Part shown: one piece after another, positions 1,397-18,557 of the stretch
How the letters are laid out: every line of letters begins with the position of its first letter
Numbering within the stretch: the first letter of the stretch is position 1
IMG/VR virus record: IMGVR_UViG_3300017971_007885
Location: 1-64,000 of that record
Origin: a virus
Length of the DNA: 64,000 bases
Reading direction: 5' to 3' (one strand)
Position numbers and translations under genes: made by a program
The notes under the pieces: generated by a model
Seen by the model: only the letters and a program-made list of their open reading frames with translations
Database searches by the model: none
Told to the model about the DNA's origin: nothing

Positions 1397-1419
1397 CAGG
1401 CTAGAAAGCAGGATTATCA

Positions 1420-1620: not shown

Positions 1621-1645
1621 CCGTGGGGATCTCTCGTGGTATACT
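1617..1645 (+). promoter_or_regulatory. sigma70-type promoter
   Basis: TTGACC (1617-1622), 17-nt spacer, TG-n-TATACT (1640-1645). Confidence 0.7.
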
Positions 1646-1688
1646 TGGATCAAGTTATACCACATCGGACAGAAGCTAGGAGCCAGCC

Positions 1689-1892: not shown

Positions 1893-2643
1893 GCTAGACA
1901 TATTATCAAACTGGGATGCAACCGCAACCAGGGCCAACGGGCTGGAACTATGTCAACGGTCCAGCACCTTGGTGACAGCGGCGGAACGAAGCGAAGATCA
2001 AACATTTCTTGTCTTTGCGTGGGCGTGCTATTCGTTTTATGAGACAAAAATACCCGGCACTGGGGGCAAGAAAAAATGGCAGTTGACCAGGATCATAGAT
2101 CCCAAAACGGGCGTGATCCCGCCCTATGCCGATAGTTGGGCAGAGTTTTGTACCCGGCACTTGCGCAAAGCTACAACCACGGTAAGCGGGTATAAATCTA
2201 TTTGGGATACGTATGTGGTCAAGCTGGAGATCGACGTAACAAGATTATCATTGGCCGGCAAAAGCAAGCTACTCGTGGCCCAGAAATTGATCAAAGACAT
2301 GTATCCGGGCGTGAACAAAGAGCTTATGGATAAGCTTCTTGATCCTGAAGTCTCACTAAAGGAACTGCAAGACTTGGTGCACAAATTGCGGCGCTTGATG
2401 GATGGCAAGGACGATCCGGAAGAAGAGGAAGAGCCCAAGGGTGCCTTCCAGGGGGATCAGCGTTACGACAAGGATATGGGGATCATTTACTGGACCGGAC
2501 ACTTTATATACAAAGATCGCAAGGTGCCCTTGAATGAGTTGACCTTTGATGTACTCGGGCCGGATGTGGTGGGAAAGGGTGTGCCTGAAGATCTTGTGAT
2601 CCCGCTTATGGATGCTATAGCCGAAGCGTTGGGGGGATCATGA
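1855..2643 (+). CDS. hypothetical protein
   Basis: 262-aa ORF coupled to next gene. Confidence 0.65.
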   Translation: MDEPEKSLMLTSELDILSNWDATATRANGLELCQRSSTLVTAAERSEDQTFLVFAWACYSFYETKIPGTGGKKKWQLTRIIDPKTGVIPPYADSWAEFCTRHLRKATTTVSGYKSIWDTYVVKLEIDVTRLSLAGKSKLLVAQKLIKDMYPGVNKELMDKLLDPEVSLKELQDLVHKLRRLMDGKDDPEEEEEPKGAFQGDQRYDKDMGIIYWTGHFIYKDRKVPLNELTFDVLGPDVVGKGVPEDLVIPLMDAIAEALGGS

Positions 2644-3515
2644 AGACAACGATCGGATGGACTGACCATAGTTTGAATCCGGGAATCTTTGGGTGCTCCC
2701 CTAAAGGGCCGGAGTGCTTGCACTGCTATGCCGCCAAGATGGCACATAGACAGGTTGCCATGGGCAATTATCCACAAGGGATCACCGAGAGAACGGCGGA
2801 AGGGGTCAAGTGGACCGGGAAAGTGATCTTGGGATGCCATGCTTACGTGGTGGATGCTTTTGCCAAGTTGCCCAAACAGAAGCGGGGGCGGGTGTTTGTA
2901 ACCAGTATGGCCGATCTTTTCCATTGGCAGGTCAACAGCACGTTTATCCTGAACGTGTACAAAGAGATGGCCGCCAGGCCACACTTGACTTTCATGGTGC
3001 TCACCAAGAGGCCAGATCATTTACTCGAATTTTGGCAAGCCCTGAGAGTATGGGACGGTGGCAAGTATTCCGAGTTGCCCAACGTGTACTATGGTATAAC
3101 CGGTGGCACCCAAGGTACCTTTACCGAACGGTGGGCGCTCTTGCGCCAGGTGGAAGCGCCCCGGTATTTTGTGAGCCTGGAGCCGTTATTATCAAGCGTG
3201 GTACTGCCTTCCGACTTGCTCAATCTCGGGGACCGGGTACAAGTGATCTGGGGCGGTGAACAGGACGCCAGGGCCAGAGTGATGAAGCCGGTGGATGCCA
3301 GGGCGATCCGGGATCAACTTGAGGGAACGGGGATCAAGCGTTACTTCAAGCAATGGGGAACGTTCTTGCCCGCCAGCCAGATGATCCCCGGCGTGCATAC
3401 GAGCTTTACCGACTTGGCACCAGGCGGCGATAACACTTTTATCAAAGTAACTAAGGCCGGGCAAAGCGATCTTCTTGATGGGGTGACCTATCATGAGCAT
3501 TTGGACCTTGCGTAA
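2640..3515 (+). CDS. DUF5131 / phage Gp37-Gp68 family protein
   Basis: TTIGWTD..NP..GCSPKGPECLHCYA, SMADLFH, LTKRP, SLEPLL, GGE, FKQWG motifs. Confidence 0.9.
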   Translation: MKTTIGWTDHSLNPGIFGCSPKGPECLHCYAAKMAHRQVAMGNYPQGITERTAEGVKWTGKVILGCHAYVVDAFAKLPKQKRGRVFVTSMADLFHWQVNSTFILNVYKEMAARPHLTFMVLTKRPDHLLEFWQALRVWDGGKYSELPNVYYGITGGTQGTFTERWALLRQVEAPRYFVSLEPLLSSVVLPSDLLNLGDRVQVIWGGEQDARARVMKPVDARAIRDQLEGTGIKRYFKQWGTFLPASQMIPGVHTSFTDLAPGGDNTFIKVTKAGQSDLLDGVTYHEHLDLA

Positions 3516-3787
3516 TGGCTCAGTTTATACGGATTGCAACGGATGAAGATCGGAAACGTGTTGCACAATTTGAATTGCGTTTTGCAAGGAATAGGGAAAT
3601 AGAGCCGGTGCTTTGGATTTCAACTTTGCAATCTTGGTTTGATGGGTTTATAGAAGATGCTCCAGAACCAACACAACAAGACAGAAGGGCATATGTAGCA
3701 GGTATGAAACGAGCACTCCAGTGTAAAGATGCTACTGGGATAAGTGGAAAGTATGTTGTAGGTAAGGAGTTGGCCAGTGAAAGCTAA
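3515..3787 (+). CDS. hypothetical protein
   Basis: TAATG coupling. Confidence 0.6.
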   Translation: MAQFIRIATDEDRKRVAQFELRFARNREIEPVLWISTLQSWFDGFIEDAPEPTQQDRRAYVAGMKRALQCKDATGISGKYVVGKELASES

Positions 3788-4283
3788 TCCGCCTATGGCT
3801 GAAGGGCCGTTTATCTATCGTTTTGAGATCGTTGGCCAACCGCCCCGGAAGAGCAATAACCGGGTGATCCGGTGGGTGTATCGGAGCAAGAGCGATCCAA
3901 AGCGCAAAACCCATGGGCCAATGAGGCCGATCGTTGCCAAGTCGGATGAAGCCATAGCGTGGGTCAATGAGGCTATAGAGCAGGTGCCGGAAGACTTCAA
4001 GCTTATGCTTGGGAGCCTGGAAGAGCCCTTGGGAATCACGTTCTTTATCACCTATCGGAATGAAAGGCCGGATCTGTCGGCTGAATTGATATGTGATATG
4101 CTCCAAGATGCTGGAATGCTCAAAGATGACCGGTATCTTAGGGAAAAACATCTATACTGGTACAAGAACAAAGAACGGCAAGGGGTCAAGATTCTATTAT
4201 TTTCAAGCCTGGACGATCCGATCTTGATACAGGTCCGGGATCTCTTCCTTGATTGTCTGGAAGATAGAAATGGGAGCATGTAA
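3777..4283 (+). CDS. RusA-like Holliday junction resolvase
   Basis: PPRKSN, RPDLS..ICDMLQ..G...DDR pattern. Confidence 0.7.
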   Translation: MKANPPMAEGPFIYRFEIVGQPPRKSNNRVIRWVYRSKSDPKRKTHGPMRPIVAKSDEAIAWVNEAIEQVPEDFKLMLGSLEEPLGITFFITYRNERPDLSAELICDMLQDAGMLKDDRYLREKHLYWYKNKERQGVKILLFSSLDDPILIQVRDLFLDCLEDRNGSM

Positions 4284-4284
4284 G

Positions 4285-5292
4285 ATGGAAATAACACTTG
4301 TTGGAATTGATTTTGGTCGTGGGGGAACCAAGGCCGTGGTGTCTCGGGATGTGCGCACATGCTTCCCTTCAGTGGTGGCCAGGGACGTGGAACGGCGCTA
4401 TGGAGATCTCTTGACGCCCCTGGATGCTAATGGGTGTGTGCACGTTCAGATTATCAATGAATTTGGGACACGCCAGATCGAACGCCTTGTGGGCAAAACG
4501 GCTATAGACCAAAACCCACTTGCCAGGGCGGAACTTGCCCAACAGCGTGATCCGGATGATGTGATCGCTCTTGTGGCAGAAGCGTTTTACAAGCTTGGAG
4601 TTGTGGGGCCGGCCAAATTGGTCGTGGGCGCTCCGATCGATTATTACAAGCCGATCCGGGACAATCGCACCTATCACGATTTGTTGATCGGTAACTGGAC
4701 GATCAACGGCCATGAAGTACAGGTGTTGGATGTAGTTGTGTTGCCTGAAGCCGTGGGCACGTTTTATTCTTTGGCCCTGGACTTGGACGGCAATCCCAAA
4801 AACCTGGACCTGCTTAGAGGCGATCATGCAGTAGTAGACGTGGGCATGTTTACCACGGATGTGGTATGGTTTAGAGATTCACGATTCATAGAGCCAAGGT
4901 CGTTTTCTCGCCAGTTTGGCGTACATGCTATCTTGACGGCACTCAAGGCGCATATGCTCAACGAGCACGGCCAGGATGTGAGTTATTTCCGGCTAGATGG
5001 GCCGCTCCGGGATGGCAAAGCCGGACTTGGAGAAAACACGATCGATTTTGGCCCAGTGATCAACCAGGCGGCGGAAGTGTTGGCAGAATCGATCATATCC
5101 GAACTGCGATCGGCGTGGCGTGATGTGATGGGGTTGCGATCCGTGCACATTTGCGGCGGTGGCTCATATTACACATGGCAGTATTTTCAAGATGAGTACG
5201 GGGATATTGCCAGGCCGGTGCAAGATGCTGAATGGTCAAATGCCATGGGATTCCGGGCTTTTGCACCGTACAAATTCAGGAGGGCTGCATGA
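4285..5292 (+). CDS. ParM/StbA-family actin-like ATPase
   Basis: GIDFGRGGTK, FPSVV, LPEAVG, VVDVGMFTTD, ICGGGS, NAMGF actin-fold motifs. Confidence 0.85.
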   Translation: MEITLVGIDFGRGGTKAVVSRDVRTCFPSVVARDVERRYGDLLTPLDANGCVHVQIINEFGTRQIERLVGKTAIDQNPLARAELAQQRDPDDVIALVAEAFYKLGVVGPAKLVVGAPIDYYKPIRDNRTYHDLLIGNWTINGHEVQVLDVVVLPEAVGTFYSLALDLDGNPKNLDLLRGDHAVVDVGMFTTDVVWFRDSRFIEPRSFSRQFGVHAILTALKAHMLNEHGQDVSYFRLDGPLRDGKAGLGENTIDFGPVINQAAEVLAESIISELRSAWRDVMGLRSVHICGGGSYYTWQYFQDEYGDIARPVQDAEWSNAMGFRAFAPYKFRRAA

Positions 5293-5716: not shown

Positions 5717-6586
5717 ATGAAGTTGATCGCGTTTGACTTGGAGATCGCAAAACCCATGGTAGATGGGGTGGAATGGTCGGAGCAAAGGCCATTGGGGATA
5801 TCTTGTGCCGCTACCTTAACCAGTGAAGGCCAGATGCGACATTGGCACAACGGCCAGAACTTGACGATAGGCGGCAATTTCGCCTTTGGTAACAAGATGA
5901 ATCCGGGCCAGGTGCATCAATTGGTGGCCTATTTGCAGGACTTTATCAATCGGGGCTATTACGTGGTGACCTGGAACGGGCTTGGTTTTGACTTTGACGT
6001 GTTGGCGGAAGAGTGCAAAGATCGAACGTGGGCCATGCAGGTCGGCAAAATGGCCATGGGTGCACATATCGATCCGGGCTTCCAGATGGTTTGTCAAAAG
6101 GGATATATGATCGGGCTGGAAAAAGCGGCCAAGGGGCTCCGGGTGGAAGGCAAAACCAAGGGCATGCATGGGGCGTTGGCTCCCCTTTTGTGGTCCGGTG
6201 ACCTATCGACAGCAAGCCCAGAGCAGTTGGAAGATATCGCTGGATTTTTTGAGGGCGGCCCGCCCGATCGCTTTGCCGGAAGCAGGTCCGCACAAGCCCT
6301 ATGCCTGGAATATGTGGGTCAGGATGTGCAAGCCACGATGAACGTGTACACAGCGTTGGTCGAGCAAAAAGAAGTGTGGTGGATAACTGCCAAAGGTACG
6401 ATATGCCGGAAGCCGTGGAAGCCGATTATCAAGACCGATCCATATGACCGGCTTTTGACCGTGGAAGAGGCGCTACGGATCGATGAGCCCAATACCTCAT
6501 GGATGTCGGATCCCCGCCCACGGGGTGAATATTTTGGGTGGGTGAAAACGTTACAACAGATGCCCGAGCGTGTGATCACGCTCTAG
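5717..6586 (+). CDS. DEDD 3'-5' exonuclease (RNase_H_2 / PolB-exo-like)
   Basis: AFDLE, TWNGLGFDF, YVGQDV motifs. Confidence 0.8.
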   Translation: MKLIAFDLEIAKPMVDGVEWSEQRPLGISCAATLTSEGQMRHWHNGQNLTIGGNFAFGNKMNPGQVHQLVAYLQDFINRGYYVVTWNGLGFDFDVLAEECKDRTWAMQVGKMAMGAHIDPGFQMVCQKGYMIGLEKAAKGLRVEGKTKGMHGALAPLLWSGDLSTASPEQLEDIAGFFEGGPPDRFAGSRSAQALCLEYVGQDVQATMNVYTALVEQKEVWWITAKGTICRKPWKPIIKTDPYDRLLTVEEALRIDEPNTSWMSDPRPRGEYFGWVKTLQQMPERVITL

Positions 6587-6600
6587 AGAGGAAAGGAGCA

Positions 6601-6750
6601 GTGTCCAGGAACGAAAAGATTCAAGAGTTTTTGCGCGTGTTGTGGGCCATCGTGACCTTACAGGGAACCCCGTGGGGGCTCCTGCGGGCGTGGCTTGACG
6701 TGGCCAGTGGTACCTATCCGGTGGATGATCAAGCCGAAGCAATGGCATAG
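6601..6750 (+). CDS. small hypothetical protein
   Basis: GGAAAGGAG RBS before GTG. Confidence 0.4.
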   Translation: MSRNEKIQEFLRVLWAIVTLQGTPWGLLRAWLDVASGTYPVDDQAEAMA

Positions 6751-6791
6751 GCACGAGCCGGATTATCATTCAGTGAAGGGAGTATGTATCT

Positions 6792-7187
6792 ATGGAAGGG
6801 AATTTGCTTTTTGGGTTTGACCTGTTTGCGATCGTGTTGGCGATCTGGAAGTTGATCACAACGGAACTTTTCCCCAAGTTGTCAGAACGGTGGAAGCGTG
6901 CGATCTTGGCGTTTTTGATGACCGGGGTTACCGTTTTGATCGGGCTCCAGACCATGGGCCTCATCTTTCCGCCAGAATCACAGCCGGTTGTAACCCTTGT
7001 TTTGACGGCGATCATGGCATTCTTGGCCACTATGGGCTATAGTGCGGAAGTGATCGGCGTGGTCAATGCCACAGTGGACTTGGTGCGTTTTGCGGCGATC
7101 CAAAAGATTGCCGAACCCAGTATGATGGCAAAGGGTACGGAAGAGACGGTGCTAAAGCGCATGATCCGCTATCGGTTGCACAAGTGA
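6792..7187 (+). CDS. membrane protein, holin-like
   Basis: three hydrophobic helices, basic C-terminus, GGGAG RBS. Confidence 0.55.
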   Translation: MEGNLLFGFDLFAIVLAIWKLITTELFPKLSERWKRAILAFLMTGVTVLIGLQTMGLIFPPESQPVVTLVLTAIMAFLATMGYSAEVIGVVNATVDLVRFAAIQKIAEPSMMAKGTEETVLKRMIRYRLHK

Positions 7188-7489
7188 CCGGCTCCGGCAA
7201 TTGGGGCCATCAGGGCCGCCCCGGACAACGGGGCGGCTCCATCCCACGGACTGAAGTGCACCCTATCTTCCGGTATGCTCAAGAACGATTATCAAAGCCG
7301 CCGCCGTGGCCGGACGTGATCGTGCTCAAGTCGGGGCTAAAAGTGCCGGTATGCCGGTGTGATGAAGTGTCAGAAGGCGTGATCTTGGTGGAAAATTGGC
7401 GGCTCATGGGTGCAATGTGGGATTTTAAGATGCTTATGCATGAACTTTGTGGGCCGTGTCCAGAAGAAAGGCAATGGACGAAATGTTAG
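7184..7489 (+). CDS. small protein beginning with the SGNWGH tag (no leader)
   Basis: MTGSGNWGHQGRPGQRGGSIP. Confidence 0.6.
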   Translation: MTGSGNWGHQGRPGQRGGSIPRTEVHPIFRYAQERLSKPPPWPDVIVLKSGLKVPVCRCDEVSEGVILVENWRLMGAMWDFKMLMHELCGPCPEERQWTKC

Positions 7490-7953
7490 AGTTTAGGAGT
7501 GATCGGGGGAAAGAGTGGGCCGCCAGGGCTCATCCAAGCCTAGTTGTTGCCGTGAATCGCCAAGTGGGCGAATTTTGGCGGCGTAATGATTTGAGGCTGG
7601 CACGTGAGGACTGCTCTTCTGCGATGTCTTCTCAAGAAGCCGAAAGCGAGATTCCGGAAGGAGCCATGCCTATCTCGGACATATCCAGGATTTTAGGGAT
7701 GGATCGTGCCACTTTGGCCAGGTGGGTCCGGGCGGGGGATCTTCCGTTGGCCGGCCGGTTTATGGTGAAGCGTAGTAGCCGGATTCATCATCAAGAGGTT
7801 TTTACGTGGCCGGGGTTGGTTGTGCAAGAGATTATCACTCGGAATGCAACCAGGACCGGGCGGACCAAAGAAATCATATGGATCGGTGAAGCGGCGTTGG
7901 CGGATAAGGGATATACTCCATGGCTAGAAGCGGCGGATCTATGTCTGGATTAG
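7474..7953 (+). CDS. HTH DNA-binding protein (excisionase/MerR-like)
   Basis: ISDISRILGMDRATLARWVRAGDLP. Confidence 0.65.
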   Translation: MDEMLEFRSDRGKEWAARAHPSLVVAVNRQVGEFWRRNDLRLAREDCSSAMSSQEAESEIPEGAMPISDISRILGMDRATLARWVRAGDLPLAGRFMVKRSSRIHHQEVFTWPGLVVQEIITRNATRTGRTKEIIWIGEAALADKGYTPWLEAADLCLD

Positions 7954-8531
7954 GTGTGCACGGGTTGTCTCTAAGCGGGAACTGGGAAACTCCGCCAAAG
8001 ATGGTAACGGATCTTGCCCCACTTTTCCCGTGGGATCTTGACGTATGCTCTTTGTGGCCCACGATAGCACCCAAGTTTTACACACCTTGGGACGATGGAT
8101 TATCATTGCCCTGGAAAGGTCTGTGCTTCATGAATCCGCCCTATGGCCGGAAGCGATTGATCGATCGGTGGATGGCCAAAGCTAGGGCGGAAGGGTGCAA
8201 ACTGGGCACCACGGTGGTATGCTTGATTCCGGCGCGTACTAGCACCACATGGTGGCAAGATAACGTGCCTTATGCCAGTATGGTAACGTTTATCCGGGGG
8301 CGGCTCCATTTTGTGCTTCGGGAACACTTTGCCCGTAAAGAAAACGGGGTTTTTGTGCGGGTGCCCACCAAGCAGGGGCCGGCGGGCTTTCCAAGCGCCT
8401 TTGTCGTGTTCGGTGATCTGGAGCGAGAGCAGATTATCAAGCTTGACAGCTATGGCTATACAGATATGTCAATTCTTGATGTTGGCGGCATGTGTGATTG
8501 GCTTTCTTGGGTAAAAAGAGAGTGGAAATGA
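7941..8531 (+). CDS. phage DNA N6-adenine methyltransferase (T1 Dam-like family)
   Basis: WETP, DLDVC, DDGL..PW, FMNPPY, LIPART.T.WW, FIRGRL.F. Confidence 0.85.
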   Translation: MSGLGVHGLSLSGNWETPPKMVTDLAPLFPWDLDVCSLWPTIAPKFYTPWDDGLSLPWKGLCFMNPPYGRKRLIDRWMAKARAEGCKLGTTVVCLIPARTSTTWWQDNVPYASMVTFIRGRLHFVLREHFARKENGVFVRVPTKQGPAGFPSAFVVFGDLEREQIIKLDSYGYTDMSILDVGGMCDWLSWVKREWK

Positions 8532-10423
8532 ACAATTGGCAGGTGCTTCCGGGGCACGTTTTGGAGTGGTTGCGAAAGTTGGCGGCGGGTAGTGTCAATC
8601 TGATTTTCACGAGTCCGCCATATTGGGCCTTGAGGGATTACGGGCTTCCGCCTTCAGTGTGGGGCGGCGATCCGAGTTGTAACCACGTATGGGGCGATCT
8701 TGTGCCGGGGGCGCATCCAAACCAGGTTGCCCAAACCAATACCCGACATTCAGACGCGGCGGCCAATGGCCAAATGGCCAAACGGGGCCAATTCTGTCAA
8801 AAGTGCGGGGCATGGTTGGGTTGTCTGGGGCTGGAGCCCGATCTAGACATGTTTATCAATCATTTGGTTGAGATCTTCAGGGAAGCACGGCGGGTGCTAC
8901 ATCCAAGCGGTACGCTCTGGGTGAACTTGGGGGATTCTTATGTAAGCAATCCTATAAGTGCCGGTGGTAAAAATGAGATCCGAACCGACGATCAAACAGG
9001 TGGCTTTCAAAGGGGGCATTCTAGGCGTGTGACCAGTCGTGGCAATGGGTTGAAGCCCAAAGACTTGATCGGAGTGCCATGGCGGTTGGCGTTGGCGCTC
9101 CAGGCGGATGGTTGGTGGCTAAGATCAGACATAGTGTGGTGCAAAGGTCTGGACCGGTCAGAGCAGGAGCTAGAGGCACAAGCGGAAGTGGAAGCGGCGC
9201 TTGCCATGGTGCGCCAGGCGGCCGGCGGAAGTCTCTTTGGATTATCAAAGCCACTAGATCAGGCTCTGAAACGGGCGGAAAAGGCTGTGGAACGGCTCTT
9301 TATGGTTGGGGCGACAATGCCCGAGAGTGTTAAGGATCGGGTCACCGCAAGCCATGAATACCTCTTTGTGTTTGCCAAGAGCAAAAAGTATCATTGGGAT
9401 AGGCATGCGATCCGGGTGTTGCCAAAACAGTGTAGTGTAGAACGGCGCTTGTATGGGCGGAGTGGCGATCACAAGCATACGGAAGGGGCTCCGGGCCAAA
9501 TGCCACATTCCTTTTTGATGGAAACAGAGATTGGTCAGGGACTGGATAACATGAATTCAGGGGGCCGCAATGCAAGAACGGTGTGGCGTGTGCAAGCCGA
9601 AGGTCACAAGCCCTTCATTTTGCCCGATGGTGAAGAGGTTGCCCACTTTGCCAGTTTCCCGAGAGCGTTGGCGGCCAGGGGGATCCAGGCCGGTACCTCA
9701 GAGCATGGGTGTTGTGCCACGTGCGGCGCTCCATTCAAACGGATTATCAAACCATCCGCCGCTTATGCCGAACTGCTAGGCCAGGACTGGGCAGATTATG
9801 AGCAGGACGCCAAAGAGGGCCGGGGTCATTCTGTAAGCAATCAACGAACCCAAAAGCGTGGGCCGGCGGCCACGGCGGAATACGAAACAACAGGTTGGGA
9901 ACCTACATGTAGGTGCCATGGCGCTCCAGAACCGGGGTTGGTGCCGTGCAAAAAGTGCAAGGGGACCGGGCAAAACCGGAAAGGCAAGAAGCGCCACGAT
10001 GATCATATGCCGGAAGAAGGCCAAAGGGAAAGTAAAAGCCGAGGCCATATCGGGAACTTGGGCAAGAATTCCATGGAGATCTTGGACGATCCATGCCCCA
10101 AGTGCAACGGTGCCGGACAGGTCCAGGGATGGGTATGGAACGAAGAGATTATCAAGGCGTGGCCGCTGAAAAGGCCAGTTGTGCTTGACACCTTTGCGGG
10201 AACAGGGCAAACGTTGCTTGCCGGGCTGGATCTCGGATGTGACGTGATCGGCATTGACTTGTCAGAAAGGTACGCCAGATTATCAAATGCCAGGTGTGAA
10301 GCGTGGCCGGAAGCGTTGCCCGAAAAAGGCAATGCCCGAGAAGAGAACGAAGCAGAAGCAATCCAACTAGAACTTGAACTAATGCGGGACGCTTCAGATT
10401 TTGAAGAGTTGGGGCTTCACTAA
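8528..10423 (+). CDS. beta-class N4-C/N6-A DNA methyltransferase with insertions
   Basis: TSPPYW, LWVNLGDSY, KDLIGVPW, MPESVKDR, HFASFP, VLDTFAGTGQT. Confidence 0.9.
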   Translation: MNNWQVLPGHVLEWLRKLAAGSVNLIFTSPPYWALRDYGLPPSVWGGDPSCNHVWGDLVPGAHPNQVAQTNTRHSDAAANGQMAKRGQFCQKCGAWLGCLGLEPDLDMFINHLVEIFREARRVLHPSGTLWVNLGDSYVSNPISAGGKNEIRTDDQTGGFQRGHSRRVTSRGNGLKPKDLIGVPWRLALALQADGWWLRSDIVWCKGLDRSEQELEAQAEVEAALAMVRQAAGGSLFGLSKPLDQALKRAEKAVERLFMVGATMPESVKDRVTASHEYLFVFAKSKKYHWDRHAIRVLPKQCSVERRLYGRSGDHKHTEGAPGQMPHSFLMETEIGQGLDNMNSGGRNARTVWRVQAEGHKPFILPDGEEVAHFASFPRALAARGIQAGTSEHGCCATCGAPFKRIIKPSAAYAELLGQDWADYEQDAKEGRGHSVSNQRTQKRGPAATAEYETTGWEPTCRCHGAPEPGLVPCKKCKGTGQNRKGKKRHDDHMPEEGQRESKSRGHIGNLGKNSMEILDDPCPKCNGAGQVQGWVWNEEIIKAWPLKRPVVLDTFAGTGQTLLAGLDLGCDVIGIDLSERYARLSNARCEAWPEALPEKGNAREENEAEAIQLELELMRDASDFEELGLH

Positions 10424-10443: not shown

Positions 10444-10455
10444 CCATGGTATAAT
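10444..10455 (+). promoter_or_regulatory. extended -10 promoter driving the metallopeptidase array
   Basis: CCATGGTATAAT in the intergenic gap; near-identical boxes at 28236, 42364 and (minus strand) 38222. Confidence 0.6.
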
Positions 10456-10506
10456 GGAGTATACAACGTGATCTTTAGTTTTTGCGCAAAAACTGAGGTA
10501 TGAATA

Positions 10507-11709
10507 ATGGATAGACAAGCACGAAGGGCGTGGTTTGGCGGTTGGGTCGTGTTACGCTCCCTTGTGGAAAAGGGATCGGATACGTCTGGAAACTACTTCC
10601 ACAAGGGCATTCCTGGACAACGGGGCGGCTCTTTGCCAGGCGGCGGCCATAGAACGTTAGGCATATCCAGCATTAGCACGGAAGATGAAAAGCGGACTGC
10701 CATTGCCCACCACAGGCGGATGATGGCCAAAAAACGGGCTATGAAGAAGAAAAAGCCCACCCCCAAGCCGAAACCCAAACCGAAACCAAAACCAAAGCCC
10801 AAGCCAGCGATCGATCCAAACGATCCCGAGGCGATCATGGCGGCATTACTCGAAGGCACCAAAGGTCTTCAGGACCAACGGGAAAGTCTTCAATCTACAA
10901 TAGATCAACTAGACAAAGACATGGAGAAGTATCAAGAAGAATACGTGATGCCGATATCACGGCAGATGTGGAGTGCGGGATATAGAAGCCAAGAGTGGGA
11001 AAAACTTGCCAAAGAGATGGAGCCTCACAACGAAAAAATGGAGCAGATGCGCCAGGCCAAATATGCCGCTTTGCGTGAAAAAGGAGAGATTGAAACCCAA
11101 TTACGTGAAGATGGTCTAAAGTACCTGGAAGTGCCCAAGAGTCAGCAAAGCACGGTGCAATTGGATTTTGGCCGGTTGCGCAAAGGCAAGGCAGAAGCGC
11201 AAGCCGGGTTAGATATCTTTAATCGTTTGTGTGGTACCGGTACCGTGAACGGCAAAGTGGCGGGTGTGGCACGGACTTCTAGTAGAAGGGCGCATTATGT
11301 GCCCAATGCATTGGGGAAACTTGGCGTAAAAGAGCCTGGAAAAGTGGGATTATCAACCAAGAGCGGCAAAACCACGATGCTCCACGAGTTGGGCCATTGG
11401 TTTGAGGATAACGATCCCGAAGCACAAAGAAAGGCTTATGCTTTTTTGGACCGGAGAACCAAAGGAGAGCGCCCCCAACGGCTATCAAGGCTCATGCCCA
11501 ATTATCGGTTTAGTCGAAGAGAAGTTGCCAGGCCAGATCAGTTTATGAGTGCCTATGCTGGAAAAGTGTACGAATACGGAAGGCTTGGCCGGTACGCAAC
11601 CGAGATCATATCTATGGGGCTAGAAACGATGTTCACCGATCCGGTTGGAATGGCCAGGGAAGATCCGGATTATATGGGCTTTATGTTGAGCCTACTTAGG
11701 GGAAAATAA
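10507..11709 (+). CDS. tagged zincin-like metallopeptidase A1
   Basis: AWFGGW..EKG.SGNYFHKG tag; PK repeat; coiled coil; HELGHW...YATEIISMG. Confidence 0.8.
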   Translation: MDRQARRAWFGGWVVLRSLVEKGSDTSGNYFHKGIPGQRGGSLPGGGHRTLGISSISTEDEKRTAIAHHRRMMAKKRAMKKKKPTPKPKPKPKPKPKPKPAIDPNDPEAIMAALLEGTKGLQDQRESLQSTIDQLDKDMEKYQEEYVMPISRQMWSAGYRSQEWEKLAKEMEPHNEKMEQMRQAKYAALREKGEIETQLREDGLKYLEVPKSQQSTVQLDFGRLRKGKAEAQAGLDIFNRLCGTGTVNGKVAGVARTSSRRAHYVPNALGKLGVKEPGKVGLSTKSGKTTMLHELGHWFEDNDPEAQRKAYAFLDRRTKGERPQRLSRLMPNYRFSRREVARPDQFMSAYAGKVYEYGRLGRYATEIISMGLETMFTDPVGMAREDPDYMGFMLSLLRGK

Positions 11710-11710
11710 G

Positions 11711-11974
11711 ATGATAGCTGTTGAGTTTATGCCAGGAGCGGCGGGCGAAATCGAGAAAGAGAAACTTGTAGCCGTGATCGATGGCTGGAAGTGGGCCAGC
11801 AAAAGCAAAAAGCTGGAAGATTACTTGAATGCGATGCTTGATCCGGATGGCCCAAGCGGTGCCGATCCACAACCGGAACGGACGGCGGTGGATATGGCGA
11901 TCAAAACACTCGGTGGTGGTAAGATTATCAAAGAAGACCAAGGCCCACCCCCGCCGGCCGGGGCCGTGCTATAG
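11711..11974 (+). CDS. small partner protein B1 (putative immunity/inhibitor)
   Basis: VAVIDGWKWAS..LDPDGPSG family, 4 paralogs in window. Confidence 0.75.
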   Translation: MIAVEFMPGAAGEIEKEKLVAVIDGWKWASKSKKLEDYLNAMLDPDGPSGADPQPERTAVDMAIKTLGGGKIIKEDQGPPPPAGAVL

Positions 11975-11983
11975 GAGCAGGTC

Positions 11984-13135
11984 ATGCGCACCGTGCAAGC
12001 GAGCAAGCAAGCCTTATACGCCTACCTTTTGGCCGCCTTGGTGGCCAAGGGATCGTCCACGTCTGGGAACTGGGGCCACAAGGGCGTGAAGGGAAGGCGG
12101 GGCGGGTCGGCTCCAGGCGGGGGCCATACTCAACTTGGGATCACGGGTACCACTTCACCGGGCGGCAAAGAGAAGATTATCAATCTTTACCGGAGGCAAC
12201 AAGCCGAAAAAAAGAAACCCACGGCGGAACAGGCACGGAACAAAATAGCCAGGATAGAAAGTGCTACCCAGGCCAAGATCGACAAGCTGAAGGCCAAACA
12301 GAAGGCCATCTTACAGGCGCGTGAAGATTACATGGACGATCATGGCCTAGAAGACCTTTACGATCGGTATAGGATTGCCAGGAGAGCGGAAGGGGCTGAA
12401 TCCGATCCGGACGTGATCGCTATGCGTGAAGAGATCGACCAACATGATGCGAACTTGAGCGACATGTGGGATGAACACCAAGCACTTGGCAAAGAGCAAC
12501 GGGCTCTTGAGAACGGCGCGAGAGAAGCAACCATGAAGGTGTTGGAAGTGCCCAAAGATCAACAAGCCAAGGTGCAATTGAGGACCAAAGATCCGACGAT
12601 CGAGAAAACAGCACAAAAGGGGTTGGATATTTTCAACCGGTTGTATGGTCGTGGTACTATGGATGGTACTGCGGTGACCGTGGATACTCATAACAGGTCA
12701 AGGGCCGGGTACGATCCCCTTGTACTCGGAGGAACAGGCCGGATCTTGCTTTACTCTTCAGGGCCGGGCATACTGACTTCAACATCTAGCGCCACATCTA
12801 TGCTTCATGAGATGGGTCATTGGTTGGAAGAGCGAGATCATGGCGTGTTCCAAAAGGCCAAAGCGTTCTTGTTGAGCAGGACGCAAAAAGATCCGGCTCA
12901 GAAAATGGCCGATCTAAAGCCGGATCGTGGGTATGCAGAATACGAAATCACAAGGCCGGACAGGTTTATAGATCCCTACGTTGGCCGGGCTTATGTCGAA
13001 CCAGGGGTGGGACACTATGCCACGGAAATAGTGTCTATGGGGATGGAACTCTTTTTTACCGATCCGGGCCAGTTTGCCAGGGACGATCCGGGCCACTTTG
13101 ACTTTATATACAACCTCATGAGGGATAGGCCATGA
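11984..13135 (+). CDS. tagged zincin-like metallopeptidase A2
   Basis: AKG.SGNWGHKG tag; HEMGHW...YATEIVSMG. Confidence 0.8.
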   Translation: MRTVQASKQALYAYLLAALVAKGSSTSGNWGHKGVKGRRGGSAPGGGHTQLGITGTTSPGGKEKIINLYRRQQAEKKKPTAEQARNKIARIESATQAKIDKLKAKQKAILQAREDYMDDHGLEDLYDRYRIARRAEGAESDPDVIAMREEIDQHDANLSDMWDEHQALGKEQRALENGAREATMKVLEVPKDQQAKVQLRTKDPTIEKTAQKGLDIFNRLYGRGTMDGTAVTVDTHNRSRAGYDPLVLGGTGRILLYSSGPGILTSTSSATSMLHEMGHWLEERDHGVFQKAKAFLLSRTQKDPAQKMADLKPDRGYAEYEITRPDRFIDPYVGRAYVEPGVGHYATEIVSMGMELFFTDPGQFARDDPGHFDFIYNLMRDRP

Positions 13136-14280
13136 TCGATTATCATTCAAGGACAACGGCACTTGGTCCTAGACTGCGCTCCAAGTACAGGGCATGGTTT
13201 TTGGGATGGTGGGTGCTTGACGCTCCGGATGTGGTTGGTAAGGGATCGTCCAAGTCGGGCAATTGGAGGCACAAGGGCCGCAAGGGACAACGGGGCGGCT
13301 CCCTTCCAGGGGCTGGACATGGCGCGATCGGGGTGATGATAGGCGATACTCCAGAGCGAGTGGATGAGCAGATCCGAAGGCATAAAGAGGCCCAGGCGAG
13401 TGCTAAAGAGGCCAAGCGGGCACGGGCCAAAATGCTCCGGGACGTGGCTCCGATTATCAAACAAATATCAGCGGCCAAGGCCAGGGCGGCGGCTCTGGAC
13501 AAGCAACGATCCGAATTGACCACGGAACATCTTATGCCGCTTTATGACCAGATGCAGGAACTCAGAAGGGCCGGGCAACAAGATAGCGCCGAATACGCGG
13601 CGCTTCAGGAACAGGCCAAGCCCTATGAAGCACAAAAAGCCCAATTATTCAAGGGCTCTAGCTCAGAGCTAAACTATGCCAAAAACTTACAATTGGAGTT
13701 GCGAAACAAGGCGGTTGAAAGTCTATCCGTGCCTGAAGGGCAACGGGCCAACTTTAACTTAGACATTCAGCCGGGCAAAGACCTGGAAGATACGGTGGGC
13801 GTGGGTGCGCAAGTCTTCAGCCAATTGGTGGGCACCGGTACCATGGACGGCAAAACTTTGAAAGTGGTGGAAACGAACAAAAGCCGGGCCTCTTACAACG
13901 ATGGTACCAAAACCGCTTCTTTAACATCCTACTCCAAAACGGCTTCTGTGGTGCACGAGATGGGCCATTGGTGGGAAGATCACGACAAGCAAGCTTTTGG
14001 GAAGGCGCTTGCATTTTGGGAACGGCGCACCAAGCGGGAAAGCTTCCAACAACTAAACAAGATCTTTCCTCATGAAGGGTATCCCGATCACGAAGTCACC
14101 AAGCCGGACAAATTCATGGATCCCTACTCGGGCAAGGTGTACACAGAGGCGGGCAAGGGGATCACGGCTACGGAAATCCTGTCCGTGGGACTGGAAAAGA
14201 TGTATACCCATCCCGTGGCCTTTGCCAGGAACGATCCGGATTACTTTGACTTTATGTATAGCACACTGAGAGGTAAGTAA
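13132..14280 (+). CDS. tagged zincin-like metallopeptidase A3
   Basis: AWFLGW..GKG.SGNWRHKG; HEMGHW...ATEILSVG. Confidence 0.8.
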   Translation: MIDYHSRTTALGPRLRSKYRAWFLGWWVLDAPDVVGKGSSKSGNWRHKGRKGQRGGSLPGAGHGAIGVMIGDTPERVDEQIRRHKEAQASAKEAKRARAKMLRDVAPIIKQISAAKARAAALDKQRSELTTEHLMPLYDQMQELRRAGQQDSAEYAALQEQAKPYEAQKAQLFKGSSSELNYAKNLQLELRNKAVESLSVPEGQRANFNLDIQPGKDLEDTVGVGAQVFSQLVGTGTMDGKTLKVVETNKSRASYNDGTKTASLTSYSKTASVVHEMGHWWEDHDKQAFGKALAFWERRTKRESFQQLNKIFPHEGYPDHEVTKPDKFMDPYSGKVYTEAGKGITATEILSVGLEKMYTHPVAFARNDPDYFDFMYSTLRGK

Positions 14281-14281
14281 C

Positions 14282-14542
14282 ATGGTTGCTGTAGAATTCC
14301 CTTTTGGCTGGAGCGATAAAACCCAGAAGCCGGGCACCGTGGCCGTGATCAAAGATTGGCGGTGGGCAAGCGAAGATGAAGCCTTTGAAGCTGTTTTGAA
14401 CGCTACGCTTGATCCGGACGGCCCAAGCGGCTCCATTCCCCAACCCGACCTATGGGCGGCTAACCAGGCGATCGAGCAGTTTGGCGGCAAGATTATCAAA
14501 CAGGAATTGCCCGAGTACCCGCCCAAGGGGATGATCCTATGA
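14282..14542 (+). CDS. small partner protein B3
   Basis: paralog of B1. Confidence 0.75.
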   Translation: MVAVEFPFGWSDKTQKPGTVAVIKDWRWASEDEAFEAVLNATLDPDGPSGSIPQPDLWAANQAIEQFGGKIIKQELPEYPPKGMIL

Positions 14543-15783
14543 TTTCCAGAACCAGGAACGGCAGGGCACTTAGTCCTGAACTGCGCTCCAAGTACAGGGC
14601 ACTTAGTCCTGAACTGCGCTCCAAGTACAGGGCACTTAGTCCTGAACTGCGCTCCAAGTACAGGGCATGGTATTATGGTTGGCGTGTGGTACAACGGGGA
14701 TCGTCCAGGTCCGGAAACTGGGGCCATAAAGGCGTAAAGGGAAGGCGCGGGGGAAGTGCTCCGGGCGGCGGCCATAGGGTGATCGGCATTGGCCCAGAGG
14801 CTGAAGACTGGATGGTTGACACGGCTCTTTTAGAGTATCGCAAAGAGCGGGCCGAAAGAGCGGCCAGGAAAAAGAAGGGAGAAGGGCCAGAGCTCCGGCG
14901 CAAACTTGCTAAACAAGCTGAACAACAAGAAGCCAGGATCAAGGCTTATGGTGATGCAGCGGAAGCCGCATGGGAAACGATGAAGGGCCATGAGACGGCC
15001 ATGAATTCAGCGGCTAGAAACATCAAGTACATCAGGGAGCAAGGGCTATCCGAAGGGGCGCTTGAGGCGCAACGAGAAGTGTACTTTGCCGAGAAGGCGG
15101 AAGTGGAAAAATACTTGGGCATGTATCGGGAGTGGCGGGAAAAAGAATATGAACTTGGAAGAGAAAAGAATGCTGCCCAGATGGAACTTTTAGCCGTGCC
15201 CAAAGACCAACAAGCCAACGTCAAGCTGACCACCAAGATCCGCAAAGGTCGAGCGGAAGCCCAAGAAGGGCTTGATGCCTTTAACAAGCTTTGTGGAACC
15301 GGGACCGTGAACGGCCAAAAGGTGGAAGTGAAGCGCACCAATAGAAGCCGATCGTTTTACCGGGACAAGCTGACACGTACTTATGCCGGCTTTGGTGCCG
15401 GGGGCAAAGATATGACCGTGACGGTGGGCGGTGAAGTGCACTTGTCCAGTTGGAGCAGTGCAAGGACGATGATCCACGAGATGGGCCATTGGTTGGAAAA
15501 TCGAGATCCCAAGATCGCCAAGCGGGTCCAAAGCTTCCTTGCCAGGCGAACCAGGGGCGAAACGGCACAAAAACTATCTGTGCTAACCGGAGATTCAGCC
15601 TATAAAGCTTACGAAGTGGCCAAGCCCGACAAGTTCATGGATGCCTATGTGGGAAAGGTGTACGGCACCGGCTCCGAAGTGATCTCGATGGGACTGCAAT
15701 ACATGTTTAGTGGGGCGGCCAAGTTCGCAAAGCAAGATCCTGATTTCTTTGACTTTATGATCTCAGTGCTCAGAGGACAGTAA
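14539..15783 (+). CDS. tagged zincin-like metallopeptidase A4
   Basis: 3x RALSPELRSKY; AWYYGW..QRG.SGNWGHKG; HEMGHW...SEVISMG. Confidence 0.8.
   Translation: MISRTRNGRALSPELRSKYRALSPELRSKYRALSPELRSKYRAWYYGWRVVQRGSSRSGNWGHKGVKGRRGGSAPGGGHRVIGIGPEAEDWMVDTALLEYRKERAERAARKKKGEGPELRRKLAKQAEQQEARIKAYGDAAEAAWETMKGHETAMNSAARNIKYIREQGLSEGALEAQREVYFAEKAEVEKYLGMYREWREKEYELGREKNAAQMELLAVPKDQQANVKLTTKIRKGRAEAQEGLDAFNKLCGTGTVNGQKVEVKRTNRSRSFYRDKLTRTYAGFGAGGKDMTVTVGGEVHLSSWSSARTMIHEMGHWLENRDPKIAKRVQSFLARRTRGETAQKLSVLTGDSAYKAYEVAKPDKFMDAYVGKVYGTGSEVISMGLQYMFSGAAKFAKQDPDFFDFMISVLRGQ
14562..14667 (+). repeat. 33-bp tandem repeat x3.2 (cagggcacttagtcctgaactgcgctccaagta)
   Basis: perfect copies at 14562, 14595, 14628. 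Confidence 0.95.
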
Positions 15784-15784
15784 A

Positions 15785-16045
15785 ATGATAGGCGTGCGCT
15801 TTGATGGACCATTATCAATCGAAGGGAAAAAGACCGGGCGGGTGGCCGTGATCAACGGTTGGCAGTGGGCAAGCAATGACAAAGCTTTTGAAGCCGCTCT
15901 GAATGCCGATCTTGATCCACAAGGGCCGGGCGGTGAAGTGCCCGATCCAGATATGCAAGCGGCGCAAGCGGCGATCAAACGATGGGGCGGTAAGATTATC
16001 ATTCACGAACCAAGGCCATATCCGCCCAAGGATGCCAAACTATGA
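15785..16045 (+). CDS. small partner protein B4
   Basis: paralog of B1. Confidence 0.75.
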   Translation: MIGVRFDGPLSIEGKKTGRVAVINGWQWASNDKAFEAALNADLDPQGPGGEVPDPDMQAAQAAIKRWGGKIIIHEPRPYPPKDAKL

Positions 16046-17139
16046 ATGAAGCAATCGGATGGTTTCATGGATGGTGGACAGTCCAGAGCCGGGGATCTCG
16101 CACATCGGGCAATTATGGCCACAAGGGCCGGAAGGGCCAACGCGGCGGATCGCTTCCAGGGGCCGGGCATACCACCATTGGCGTGACGCCGGCCATGTCC
16201 AAAGAAGAGATCGCGCAAGCCATTGACGCCCACCAAGAGGCCAGGGCCAAAGAAAAGGGCAAGATGGGACCGCTTATCCGCAAACGGTTGGAAAAAGTGG
16301 ATGCCAAGTATGAAGCCAGGGCTCTAGCACTCATGCAGGAGAATGGAGAGCTTAACTTTTCTCTCAGATTGCACCAAGACGAAATCACAAACCTGTACGA
16401 TATGCGGGAAAGGGTCAGGAAGCAGGGGGCGGGCCAAGCGTCGATCGACTTTTGGAGCGATCAGATAGAAAAAACATCCGCCAAGGGTGAAGTTATGTTC
16501 AACCGCTCCATTGAAGTGAGTCAGGAACTGCATGGCTTGCGCCAGGAACAACGACAAGCCATGCTTGATGTTCTCTCGGTACCCAAAAGCCAGCAAGCTA
16601 ACGTGACTATGGATACCCGGATCCGGCTCAACCGGGAAGGCGTGCAAAAGGGCGTAGATGCCTTTAACCAACTGGTAGGCACCGGTACCGTGGATGGCCA
16701 GAAGGTCAGCGTGGGGCGGACCAACGATAGAAGGGCTGCCTATGTGCCGATCGGCTCCCCCAAGAACTCGGGCCGGGTAGTATTATCAAAGGGCGATAGC
16801 GCCACGACGATGCTTCACGAGATGGGCCATTGGTTGGAAGACCGAGATCCCAAGATACACCAAAAAGCCCTTGCCTTCCTGGACCGGCGCACCAAGGGCG
16901 AAACGGCACAAAAACTTTCGATACTCACCCGCAATTCCAACTATAAAGACCGAGAGATCGCCAAGCCGGACAAATTCATGACGCCCTATTCAGGCAAGAT
17001 TTACGAACACAGCACAGCAGGACGCTATGCAACCGAGATCATTTCTATGGGGCTCCAGCATATGTATGTGGAAGCGGCCACGTTCGCAAAGCGAGATCCA
17101 GATTTCTTTGATTTTATGATCTCGGTGTTGAGGGACTAG
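16042..17139 (+). CDS. tagged zincin-like metallopeptidase A5
   Basis: GWFHGW..SRG.SGNYGHKG; HEMGHW...YATEIISMG. Confidence 0.8.
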   Translation: MNEAIGWFHGWWTVQSRGSRTSGNYGHKGRKGQRGGSLPGAGHTTIGVTPAMSKEEIAQAIDAHQEARAKEKGKMGPLIRKRLEKVDAKYEARALALMQENGELNFSLRLHQDEITNLYDMRERVRKQGAGQASIDFWSDQIEKTSAKGEVMFNRSIEVSQELHGLRQEQRQAMLDVLSVPKSQQANVTMDTRIRLNREGVQKGVDAFNQLVGTGTVDGQKVSVGRTNDRRAAYVPIGSPKNSGRVVLSKGDSATTMLHEMGHWLEDRDPKIHQKALAFLDRRTKGETAQKLSILTRNSNYKDREIAKPDKFMTPYSGKIYEHSTAGRYATEIISMGLQHMYVEAATFAKRDPDFFDFMISVLRD

Positions 17140-17142
17140 ACT

Positions 17143-17400
17143 ATGATTGCCGTACACTTTCCTTTGGTATTCAAGGGCGATAAAACCAGGGCCGGACACG
17201 TGGCCGTGATCGACGGCTATAAGTGGGCCAGCAAACACCAGATGCTAGAAGACCTTTTGAACTCGAAACTTGATCCCGATGGACCACGGGGCGACGATCC
17301 CAACCCAGATGCCACGGCGGCACAAGCGGCAATCAAGCTTTGGGGCGGTGAGATTATCAAACAAAAGGCCAAACCAGAACCCCAAGGGGTGATCCAATGA
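17143..17400 (+). CDS. small partner protein B5
   Basis: paralog of B1. Confidence 0.75.
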   Translation: MIAVHFPLVFKGDKTRAGHVAVIDGYKWASKHQMLEDLLNSKLDPDGPRGDDPNPDATAAQAAIKLWGGEIIKQKAKPEPQGVIQ

Positions 17401-18557
17401 ACCAAAGACAGGCAGGAGCGTGGTATCTCGGGTGGTTGGCGGTAAGGCCCACCGGGGTGGCCAAGGGCGTAGTCCTTGAACGAACGATCAAGGGATCCAG
17501 CAAGTCTGGGAACTGGGGCCACAAGGGCGTAAAGGGTAGACGTGGCGGTAGTGCTCCAGGGGCTGGACACGGTGCGATCGGGATAACCCCGGCCATGTCA
17601 CAAGAAGAGATTCAAACGGCGGTGGATGCGCAACGAGCCAGGACGGCGGCCAAAAAGAAACCGGCCACAGCCAAGGCTGCCAGGCGTGCGATTATCAAAC
17701 AAGATGATGCTTTGCGGGCCAAAGAACAGGCGTTGCGCCAGGCCCAAGAAGAATACATAAAAGAGCTTACAGCTTTTCGGGAAGAGTACACAAGCCCACT
17801 TATCAAACAAAAACTAGAGTTGTACGAAAAGGGTTACAGGCCAGGCGATCCCGAGATGGAAGGGGTGGAAGCTGAATTATCCAGGTACCGGGGGAAACTA
17901 GATGACATGTGGGCGGAACACGCCAGGCAGTCAACCGAAATCAAGGCTATCATGGACCAACGAAAAGAAGCCGCCCTTCAGGCTCTGGAACTGCCCAAAG
18001 ACCAACAGGCTGAAGTGGAACTTGATTTTGGAAACTTGCGCAAGGGCAAAACAGAGGCGCAAGCGGGCGTGGATGCCTTTAACCGGCTAGTGAGCAACCG
18101 GCTGGAAATGGACAACGAAGTGGAAGTCACACGCACCCAAGACAGCAGGGCATTCTATACGCCCTTTGGCTATAGCATAAATCCCGGTACCATCGGACTG
18201 GCAACCACTTCAGGCCGCACAAGTATGCTTCACGAGTTGGGTCATTGGCTGGAAGATCGAGATCGAAGCGTGCACACCAAAGCCCTGAATTTTCTCAACC
18301 GGAGAACGGCCGGCGAAAGCGCGATCAAGATGCGAGATGCCAGGCCAGGTATGGGCTACGACGATTACGAAATAACCAAAGTGGACCAATTTTCCAGGCC
18401 GTACATGGGCAAAGTCTATCAGTCTAAAAGCCGGGGCCACTATGCAACCGAGATCGTTTCTATGGGACTGGAAGAGCTTTACAAGGACGCCGCCAGCTTT
18501 GCCAGAAAAGATCCGGATTACTTTGACTTTATGTATAGCCTACTGAGGGGACAATAA
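17397..18557 (+). CDS. tagged zincin-like metallopeptidase A6
   Basis: AWYLGW..IKG.SGNWGHKG; HELGHW...YATEIVSMG. Confidence 0.8.
   Translation: MNQRQAGAWYLGWLAVRPTGVAKGVVLERTIKGSSKSGNWGHKGVKGRRGGSAPGAGHGAIGITPAMSQEEIQTAVDAQRARTAAKKKPATAKAARRAIIKQDDALRAKEQALRQAQEEYIKELTAFREEYTSPLIKQKLELYEKGYRPGDPEMEGVEAELSRYRGKLDDMWAEHARQSTEIKAIMDQRKEAALQALELPKDQQAEVELDFGNLRKGKTEAQAGVDAFNRLVSNRLEMDNEVEVTRTQDSRAFYTPFGYSINPGTIGLATTSGRTSMLHELGHWLEDRDRSVHTKALNFLNRRTAGESAIKMRDARPGMGYDDYEITKVDQFSRPYMGKVYQSKSRGHYATEIVSMGLEELYKDAASFARKDPDYFDFMYSLLRGQ

Follow-up and report, generated by a model that had tools for sequence, protein, structure and literature searches.

Introduction

Why does a phage keep in a row six diverged copies of what appears to be one zinc peptidase gene, and where would their products act? 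The question is raised by a block of ten genes at positions 10507-18557 (+ strand) of the IMG/VR virus record IMGVR_UViG_3300017971_007885. The stretch analysed, referred to below as the window, comprises the first 64 kb (64,000 nucleotides) of this 100,482-bp record, which is estimated to be 92% complete and is classified in IMG/VR as a provirus. Nearly all genes of the window lie on the + strand. A first-pass annotation of this DNA described a tandem array of six zinc-metallopeptidase paralogs, and six open reading frames (ORFs) of 365-414 amino acids (aa), alignable from end to end, were indeed found on the + strand of the block. Four further paralogous ORFs of 85-87 aa, absent from that annotation, are interleaved after copies 1, 3, 4, and 5, and the gene order is P1 s1 P2 P3 s2 P4 s3 P5 s4 P6.

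It is difficult to tell from sequence which phage proteins ride in the capsid and take effect in the first seconds of an infection, and very few of their targets are known. The reading favoured here, to which a probability of about 0.6 is given, is that the array encodes proteins of this kind, namely, effector endopeptidases that would be carried in the capsid and injected, accompanied by partner proteins.

Architecture and Divergence of the Six Large Proteins

Each of the large proteins is built of three parts. The leader and a glycine-rich tag come first, the middle part is a helical hairpin of ~135 aa, and the HExxH domain that follows measures ~190 aa. P1 (400 aa; 10507-11709) carries in addition a (KP)n run between the tag and the hairpin. 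The other tagged hairpin-zincin proteins, likewise encoded on the + strand, are P2 (383 aa; 11984-13135), P3 (382 aa; 13132-14280), P4 (414 aa; 14539-15783), P5 (365 aa; 16042-17139), and P6 (386 aa; 17397-18557).

The full-length proteins are 37-42% identical to copy 1 and 37-46% identical among paralogs. Identity differs by part, being 49-70% in the tag, 42-64% in the C-terminal peptidase domain, and 18-31% in the hairpin, values that bear out the earlier description of the middle part as a highly variable coiled coil. At the DNA level, the copies are 60-75% identical to each other, a distance that excludes both an assembly artefact and a recent origin of the array.

The columns invariant in the six copies comprise the tag (GS..SGN..HKG..G.RGGS.PG.GH) and the motifs HE.GHW, F..RT, Y.G..Y, E..S.G, and DP; every conserved motif listed in the first-pass annotation is present in the six-copy alignment. 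The HExxH motif and the downstream Glu, which were said there to be retained throughout, are invariant in all six copies and in family alignments of 42 and 61 sequences, and the tyrosines near the catalytic motifs are invariant or nearly so in distant relatives. The large proteins are basic (isoelectric point (pI) 8.9-9.9), have Lys-rich stretches, and contain 0-1 Cys. Searches of Pfam, NCBIfam, and PDB sequences with the six proteins returned coiled-coil noise only, and a search of PHROGs returned families of unknown function and one “minor head protein” family.

The leader of P4 contains, ahead of the tag (14562-14667), a perfect tandem repeat of 33 bp in 3.2 copies which encodes (ALSPELRSKYR)x3. 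A single copy of this unit is present in P3, and the repeat of P4 looks like the outcome of a recent slippage event.

Predicted Fold of the Peptidase Domain

P5 was the copy used for modelling. The AlphaFold2 model of the whole protein, built with 61 homologs, has a predicted local distance difference test score (pLDDT) of 91.4 and a predicted template modelling score (pTM) of 0.82. Residues 1-53, which comprise the leader and the tag, are disordered in this model, and an antiparallel hairpin of two long helices (75-127 and 132-178) precedes an alpha/beta domain. A fold search with the whole model matched only helical hairpins, and because the hairpin dominated this search, the peptidase domain was modelled alone. 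The model of the isolated domain (42 sequences) reached a pLDDT of 96.0 and a pTM of 0.92, and its elements include helix 31-44, strands 54-59, 66-68, and 78-81, and helices 87-101 and 103-116. The HExxH motif (HE[LM]GH) is located on helix 87-101, and the Glu of TE[IV]xSxG, 69 residues past the second His at the start of helix 166-184, is the putative third metal ligand. The model has the zincin core in the layout given in the relevant passage of Iyer et al. (PMC5512222), that is, an N-terminal helix, three strands, the HExxH helix, and a later helix that opens with the invariant Glu.

In the structural comparison of this domain with VIA-align, the anthrax lethal factor ranked at the top (Z 8.0-8.2 over 138-140 residues, 3.2 Å), ahead of the Pro-Pro endopeptidases PPEP-1, -2, and -3 (Z 7.8-8.0). 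An MtfA-like protein came next, with Z 6.7, and lower ranks were taken by thermolysin, M1 aminopeptidases, and matrix metalloproteinases. Zinc peptidases make up nearly all of the 50 structural matches listed. The domain is, on the evidence of the models, a distant zincin/gluzincin whose nearest solved neighbours are M34 enzymes. A zincin fold is predicted, and on this point the original assignment of the six genes to the zinc metallopeptidases stands.

Membership in MEROPS family M34 itself was considered and rejected, as Pfam ATLF was matched neither by the six proteins at E≤1 nor by the 42 domain sequences at E≤0.1. A PDB profile search matched no peptidase, and the relation to M34 is to be taken as a modelled structural neighbourhood only. 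Sub-threshold matches to Pfam MPTase-PolyVal (PF18818) were seen in 4 of the 42 members (best E 0.026), and the same number matched Peptidase_M90 below threshold (best E 0.013); no model of Pfam or NCBIfam matches the peptidase domain. The domain appears to define an uncatalogued peptidase family, newly found here, with a predicted fold near M34.

Family Spread and Association with Head Proteins

A profile of the six proteins matched 6,911 cluster representatives at E≤0.001 among 1.84 billion, 640 of them at E≤1e-30. In most of these representatives, the domain forms the C-terminal end of a protein whose length is 500 to more than 1,000 aa. Ten of the long homologs were searched against Pfam and gave Portal_Mu, Phage_portal, Phage_Mu_F (twice, once with an intein), ART-PolyVal, and GNAT. 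Among isolates, gp28 of Flavobacterium phage pippi8-1 combines MuF with the peptidase domain, adjoins the portal gene, and was labelled “structural protein” by its depositors. The domain is also present in SpyM3_1120 of Streptococcus pyogenes phage 315.3, in “minor head proteins” of Lactococcus phages 62503 and 50902, and in a head-morphogenesis/ART protein of a Bacillus phage. In Planktothrix phage PaV-LD, two genes in tandem, ORF080R and ORF081R, encode it and are located between those for the capsid and the tape measure, and ORF081R bears the depositors' label “virion structural protein”; the CL131 supplement has no bearing on ORF081R. Matches in BFVD consist of the PaV-LD protein and uncharacterised “head morphogenesis domain” proteins, and PHROGs assigns the family to unknown function. 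These occurrences point to a strong association of the family with head proteins.

The peptidase domain was found also on 18 non-mobilizable plasmids (of Vibrio, Leptolyngbya, Aeromonas, and others), the ten listed being 67-141 kb in size. These are probably phage-plasmids.

The Glycine-Rich Tag

The tag has the consensus SGNWGHKGxKGxRGGSxPGxGH. It is carried by 11 ORFs of the 100-kb genome, all of them inside the window, in front of at least five different C-terminal parts. Besides the six peptidases, the carriers are three genes past terL, one at 51980, and a bare core copy at 7172. The three consecutive genes just past terL (35444-35977, 35974-36693, and 36690-37727, + strand) have other C-terminal parts and may be part of the same cargo system as the array, as their shared tag suggests. 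The tagged gene at 51980-52999 (+ strand) lies within ORF 51767-52999, and the Met at 51980 is probably its true start. The eleventh core tag (SGNWGHQGRPGQRGGS; 7172-7264, + strand) has no leader, and a lone tag is present at the equivalent place in the related metagenome contig L078 described below.

One of these carriers, the 345-aa protein of 36690-37727, has an HEIGH sequence near its C-terminus and was examined as a further member of the peptidase family; it is not one (hhalign probability 6%) and may be a second, different zincin cargo. Five consecutive genes with the same tag (190, 234, 303, 384, and 357 aa) were observed on the viral contigs L049, L054, and L075, where they resemble the cluster at 35444-37727.

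On longer proteins, the tag profile detects hundreds of polyvalent-type proteins of 700-1,900 residues. Pfam domains of these proteins include ART-PolyVal, ADP-ribosyl exotoxin, NUDIX, 2H phosphoesterase, zeta toxin, and Ntox50, as well as ATLF, M90, SprT, DdrB-ParB, portal, MuF, and an S78-type protease. The tag recurs in them 3-7 times per protein, 150-400 residues apart, and marks module boundaries. Because the tag heads each module there, the six genes of the array can be seen as the unfused form of such long proteins. A 2H phosphoesterase, a type of domain that polyvalent proteins elsewhere in phages have after the tag, is encoded in the late region of the window as a free-standing gene (42518-43147; 2_5_RNA_ligase2, E 2.4e-10). 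Literature searches found no description of the tag, and keyword look-ups in PMC5512222 and PMC5576092 returned no passage on it; searches for a packaged phage metallopeptidase likewise found none.

The Small Partner Family

The four small genes, each placed directly behind a peptidase gene, are s1 (87 aa; 11711-11974), s2 (86 aa; 14282-14542), s3 (86 aa; 15785-16045), and s4 (85 aa; 17143-17400), all on the + strand, and they follow P1, P3, P4, and P5, respectively. Their products are ~50% identical to each other, have a pI of 4.4-6.8, and lack the tag. Common motifs of the family are W..S, LN, a DP.GP.G..P.PD stretch, GG.II, and a proline-rich tail. At the GG[KE]II codons of each small ORF, the sequence (G)ATTATCA(A) was noticed (11915-11955, 14483-14523, 15986-16026, and 17344-17384).

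A hidden Markov model was built from the four ORFs and iterated on fetched loci. A partner homolog starts 20-70 nt past the stop of the peptidase gene in 27 of the 64 loci on viral contigs and in 53 of the 73 on metagenome contigs with room downstream, and most of the peptidase genes so linked are long fusions of unrelated phages. ORF082R of PaV-LD is a clear homolog of the partner (E 1.5e-18). Because the partner follows the domain in so many of these loci, the peptidase and the partner, as judged from gene order, are a conserved cassette. A tblastn search with the small ORF against 50,697 phage isolates gave no match. Two proteins in the partner position, pippi8-1 gp29 (E 0.015) and SpyM3_1119 of S. 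pyogenes (not significant), were considered, and their homology to the family could not be established. A mirror-tree comparison of peptidase and partner among the paralog pairs showed no correlation, the distances being saturated.

It has been reported that MuF toxins have small immunity ORFs downstream and that 20% of these toxins have a metallopeptidase domain, as stated in a passage of PMC5576092. Since the partner occupies the position of the MuF-toxin immunity genes, it is read by analogy as a cognate inhibitor, an immunity protein, or a chaperone, with roughly even odds that one of these roles applies. The family appears to be previously undescribed; passages of PMC5512222 and PMC5576092 found by keyword do not mention it.

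History of the Array

The metagenome contig L078 (40,838 bp) carries the same ten genes in the same order, in addition to the lone upstream tag. L012 is a second sample of the same relative, and the comparison thus spans two phages. Identity to L078 over the whole protein, the peptidase domain, and the hairpin is 76, 92, and 53% in slot 1; 67, 82, and 45% in slot 2; 83, 95, and 66% in slot 3; 60, 81, and 23% in slot 4; 48, 60, and 25% in slot 5; and 76, 88, and 61% in slot 6. P3 is also 83% identical to its counterpart on L012 (Pa, the same as Q3 of L078), and the ortholog of P2 (Q2) is likewise without a partner.

Pairwise ratios of nonsynonymous to synonymous substitution rates (dN/dS) against the related phage are all below 1, with 0.06-0.25 in the peptidase domain and 0.17-0.52 in the hairpin. 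The catalytic domains are under purifying selection, and the hairpins are the fastest-evolving part. For the partners, dN/dS is 0.17-0.37, which indicates purifying selection also in this family; the value is 0.24 for s1 and 0.17 for s2, the latter being 83% identical to its ortholog.

In the maximum-likelihood tree, all copies of both phages form one clade (support 93/98), and within it the copies of slots 3, 4, and 6 are each joined to their ortholog with full support. The peptidase (81%) and the partner (78%) of slot 4 have been kept together and the hairpin has been replaced (23%); the replacement N-terminal segment resembles that of P6, and the N-terminal segments are mosaic. In slot 5, the entire cassette differs, with a dS of ~1.4 versus ~0.5 elsewhere. 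The accordion-like expansion proposed at first pass does not agree with these data, as the copies are far apart in both protein and DNA sequence and L078 has the same six slots and four partners. Judged from the two genomes, the array is an old and stable six-slot structure with occasional exchange of cassettes and hairpins.

Smaller arrays were noted on contigs of other lineages. L119 has three tandem untagged peptidase genes with one small ORF (6162-10318), and L100 has two peptidase domains in a single 1029-aa ORF followed by a small ORF (1290-4606).

Expression Signals and Genomic Surroundings

The junctions among the ten genes measure from -4 to +9 nt, and GAGG-like Shine-Dalgarno sequences are located in the final codons of the preceding gene. 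Because of both features, the block almost certainly forms one translationally coupled unit, and it is read as a ten-gene operon. It was claimed at first pass that the block has its own promoter. In the 83-bp gap that precedes P1, a promoter-like extended -10 element (TGGTATAAT; 10447-10455, + strand) is a perfect match, one of three in the window; no -35 element was found for it, and a generic sigma-70 scan of the array region was not above chance. A terminator scan of the region was uninformative, and no TGTCAG-repeat promoter was found at the array. A promoter belonging to the block is therefore a plausible feature of the sequence.

Upstream, the array is flanked by a gene for a 641-aa N6/N4 DNA methylase with a large insertion (8498-10423) and, downstream, by a gene for a YAcAr/SLOG-family protein (PF10686; 18562-19092). 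A weak TerL match lies at 32361-33779, 13.8 kb downstream of the array, in agreement with the earlier placement of terL at about 14 kb. Large late proteins (597, 751, 557, 409, 481, and 401 aa among them) are encoded in 30567-58410 and match no head family of PHROGs, Pfam, or NCBIfam; the exceptions in this region are the weak TerL match and a tape-measure protein. The head genes of this phage are, to judge by such searches, unusually divergent.

Proposed Function and Alternative Explanations

According to the favoured explanation, the tag would direct the basic, nearly Cys-free proteins into the procapsid late in infection, possibly with a cut at or near the tag. The peptidases would then be ejected together with the DNA to cut host proteins in the cell infected next, and six diverged copies would cover different substrates, a situation comparable to that of the T4 proteins Ip1, Ip2, and Ip3. 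The untagged partners of ~86 aa that accompany P1, P3, P4, and P5 would restrain the peptidases in the producing cell and remain behind. That the proteases are injected was already suggested by the first-pass annotation; we infer it from the tag-hairpin-peptidase module in portal/MuF fusions, the tag on 11 proteins, and the label of the PaV-LD protein. Packaging, proteolytic activity, the role of the partner, and the targets are likewise proposals.

Several observations weigh against this explanation. The array lies outside the head module, between the methylase and SLOG genes, and no portal, capsid, or prohead-protease gene was recognised in the genome. This variant of the tag is found upstream in the same ORF for only 12 of 82 peptidase domains of metagenome loci, and the PaV-LD homologs have no tag. 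The fold matches are middling, with Z values of ~8, and the E values of Foldseek were no better than 0.056, so that even the domain alone had no match in PDB at E≤0.001. The small ORF is unmatched in Pfam, PHROGs, and NCBIfam, and ESM Atlas returned nothing above 0.77. P2 and P6, a third of the peptidases, stand without a partner. Finally, the evidence from virions consists only of depositors' annotations (PaV-LD ORF081R and pippi8-1 gp28).

A bolder extension of the same explanation holds that the peptidases are sequence-specific, that each is aimed by its own hairpin at a different host protein, of defence or of housekeeping, and that each is kept latent in the producing cell by a dedicated pseudo-substrate inhibitor of an undescribed family. 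It is put forward tentatively, as a possibility of rather low probability. That the variable coiled coils select targets had been proposed at first pass; the hairpins, which change fastest and were exchanged in slots 4 and 5, may have such a role, but their pairwise dN/dS does not reach 1. If the extension were true, phages would possess in the peptidase and the partner a new effector-immunity pair that is widespread, with thousands of genomes carrying it, and capsid cargo would be predictable through the tag from sequence alone.

The alternative that survives best interprets the genes as polymorphic toxin-immunity cassettes for competition among bacteria or phages, in which the peptidases would be toxic in the absence of the matching immunity protein. 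Resident prophages would protect their hosts, and the array would be a store of alleles exchanged by recombination. Polymorphic toxins had been mentioned as an option at first pass, and this option gains support from the small ORF behind the enzymatic domain, which is the classical position of an immunity gene, as described for MuF toxins in part of PMC5576092. The exchange of cassettes between related phages in slots 4 and 5, the mosaic N-terminal segments, and the provirus classification of the record also speak for it. It loses support from the pattern of variation, as here the enzymatic domain is conserved and the N-terminal hairpin variable, the reverse of polymorphic toxins. Moreover, no tyrosine integrase was found in the 100-kb record, and P2 and P6 are without a partner in both phages. 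This alternative overlaps the explanation by injected effectors, from which it differs mainly in the target, and it is considered unlikely.

A role in morphogenesis or processing, in which the peptidases would cut tagged cargo or polyvalent proteins at or near the tag during assembly or after ejection and would leave host proteins alone, is more improbable still. MPTase domains are a hub of polyvalent proteins with a predicted processing role, as Iyer et al. state in a portion of PMC5512222, and the genome has 11 tagged proteins and no recognised prohead protease of the S78 or ClpP type, a statement that does not extend to the T4 gp21 family, which was not searched. For processing, however, one enzyme would suffice, and purifying selection maintains all six diverged copies in both phages; nor is a dedicated partner expected. 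In addition, only ~15 of ~90 polyvalent proteins with at least two tags match the peptidase domain, and this domain itself stands behind the tag like other cargo.

That the proteins are non-catalytic internal head proteins, structural or DNA-condensing, with the zincin fold as a relic, is very improbable: they are indeed basic and nearly Cys-free, with long helical hairpins and Lys-rich stretches, but distant relatives have kept the HExxH motif, the putative third-ligand Glu, and the nearby Tyr with little or no change, and constraint is strongest in the catalytic domain (dN/dS 0.06-0.25).

Comparison with Known Systems

The explanation by injected effectors can be compared with several systems. 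The same peptidase domain occurs in the MuF- and portal-fused effectors and polyvalent proteins, groups treated by Iyer et al. 2017 (PMC5512222) and Jamet et al. 2017 (PMC5576092). The array resembles the MPTase-type polyvalent effectors in having a zincin with HExxH and Glu and in the tag that punctuates polyvalent proteins, and it resembles the MuF toxins in having a small ORF directly downstream, in four of six copies here. It differs from the fused effectors in that the genes are free-standing, six in tandem, and outside the head module, and from the polyvalent MPTase in that no model of Pfam, MPTase-PolyVal included, or of NCBIfam matches the domain.

In phage T4, Ip1, Ip2, and Ip3 share a packaging signal, the capsid targeting sequence, are injected, and each inhibit one GmrSD variant without cross-protection (PMC12373910). 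The likeness lies in several diversified proteins with a common N-terminal signal, although packaging is here proposed from sequence; the disarming of one host-defence variant by each T4 protein would explain why multiple copies are kept. The T4 proteins have no sequence relation to those of the array and are small stoichiometric inhibitors rather than enzymes, without partner genes. Their signal is removed by the gp21 protease; here, searches for prohead proteases of the S78 and ClpP types recognised none.

The M34 enzymes, namely, lethal factor and PPEP-1/2/3, resemble the modelled domain with Z 7.8-8.2 over ~140 residues and share HExxH with a downstream Glu. However, identity is 12-17%, and there is no sequence-level match to Pfam ATLF or to a PDB chain. 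The spacing of the putative metal ligands (69 residues) is longer here than in M34, and the hairpin and the tag are absent from M34 enzymes.

Among isolates, PaV-LD is the closest, with the tandem homologous peptidases ORF080R and ORF081R followed by the small-ORF homolog ORF082R. It differs in having two copies only, without the glycine-rich tag and inside the structural module. The PaV-LD structural proteins gave no tblastn match in the window, and the two phages have no other detectable structural proteins in common.

Metallopeptidase effectors delivered by phages and MuF toxin-immunity pairs are thus already known as classes. What is new here is the free-standing array of six slots, the uncatalogued peptidase family with a predicted fold near M34, and the conserved family of small partners. 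The array is a natural experiment, with one enzyme family in six copies, a conserved core, exchangeable hairpins, and four dedicated partners, and the peptidase family is present in cultivable phages of Streptococcus pyogenes, Lactococcus, Flavobacterium, and Planktothrix. The tag carried by all six proteins may mark head cargo in many uncultured phages. If the partner is a specific inhibitor, the cassette would be a new effector-immunity module and a source of sequence-specific proteases with matched inhibitors.

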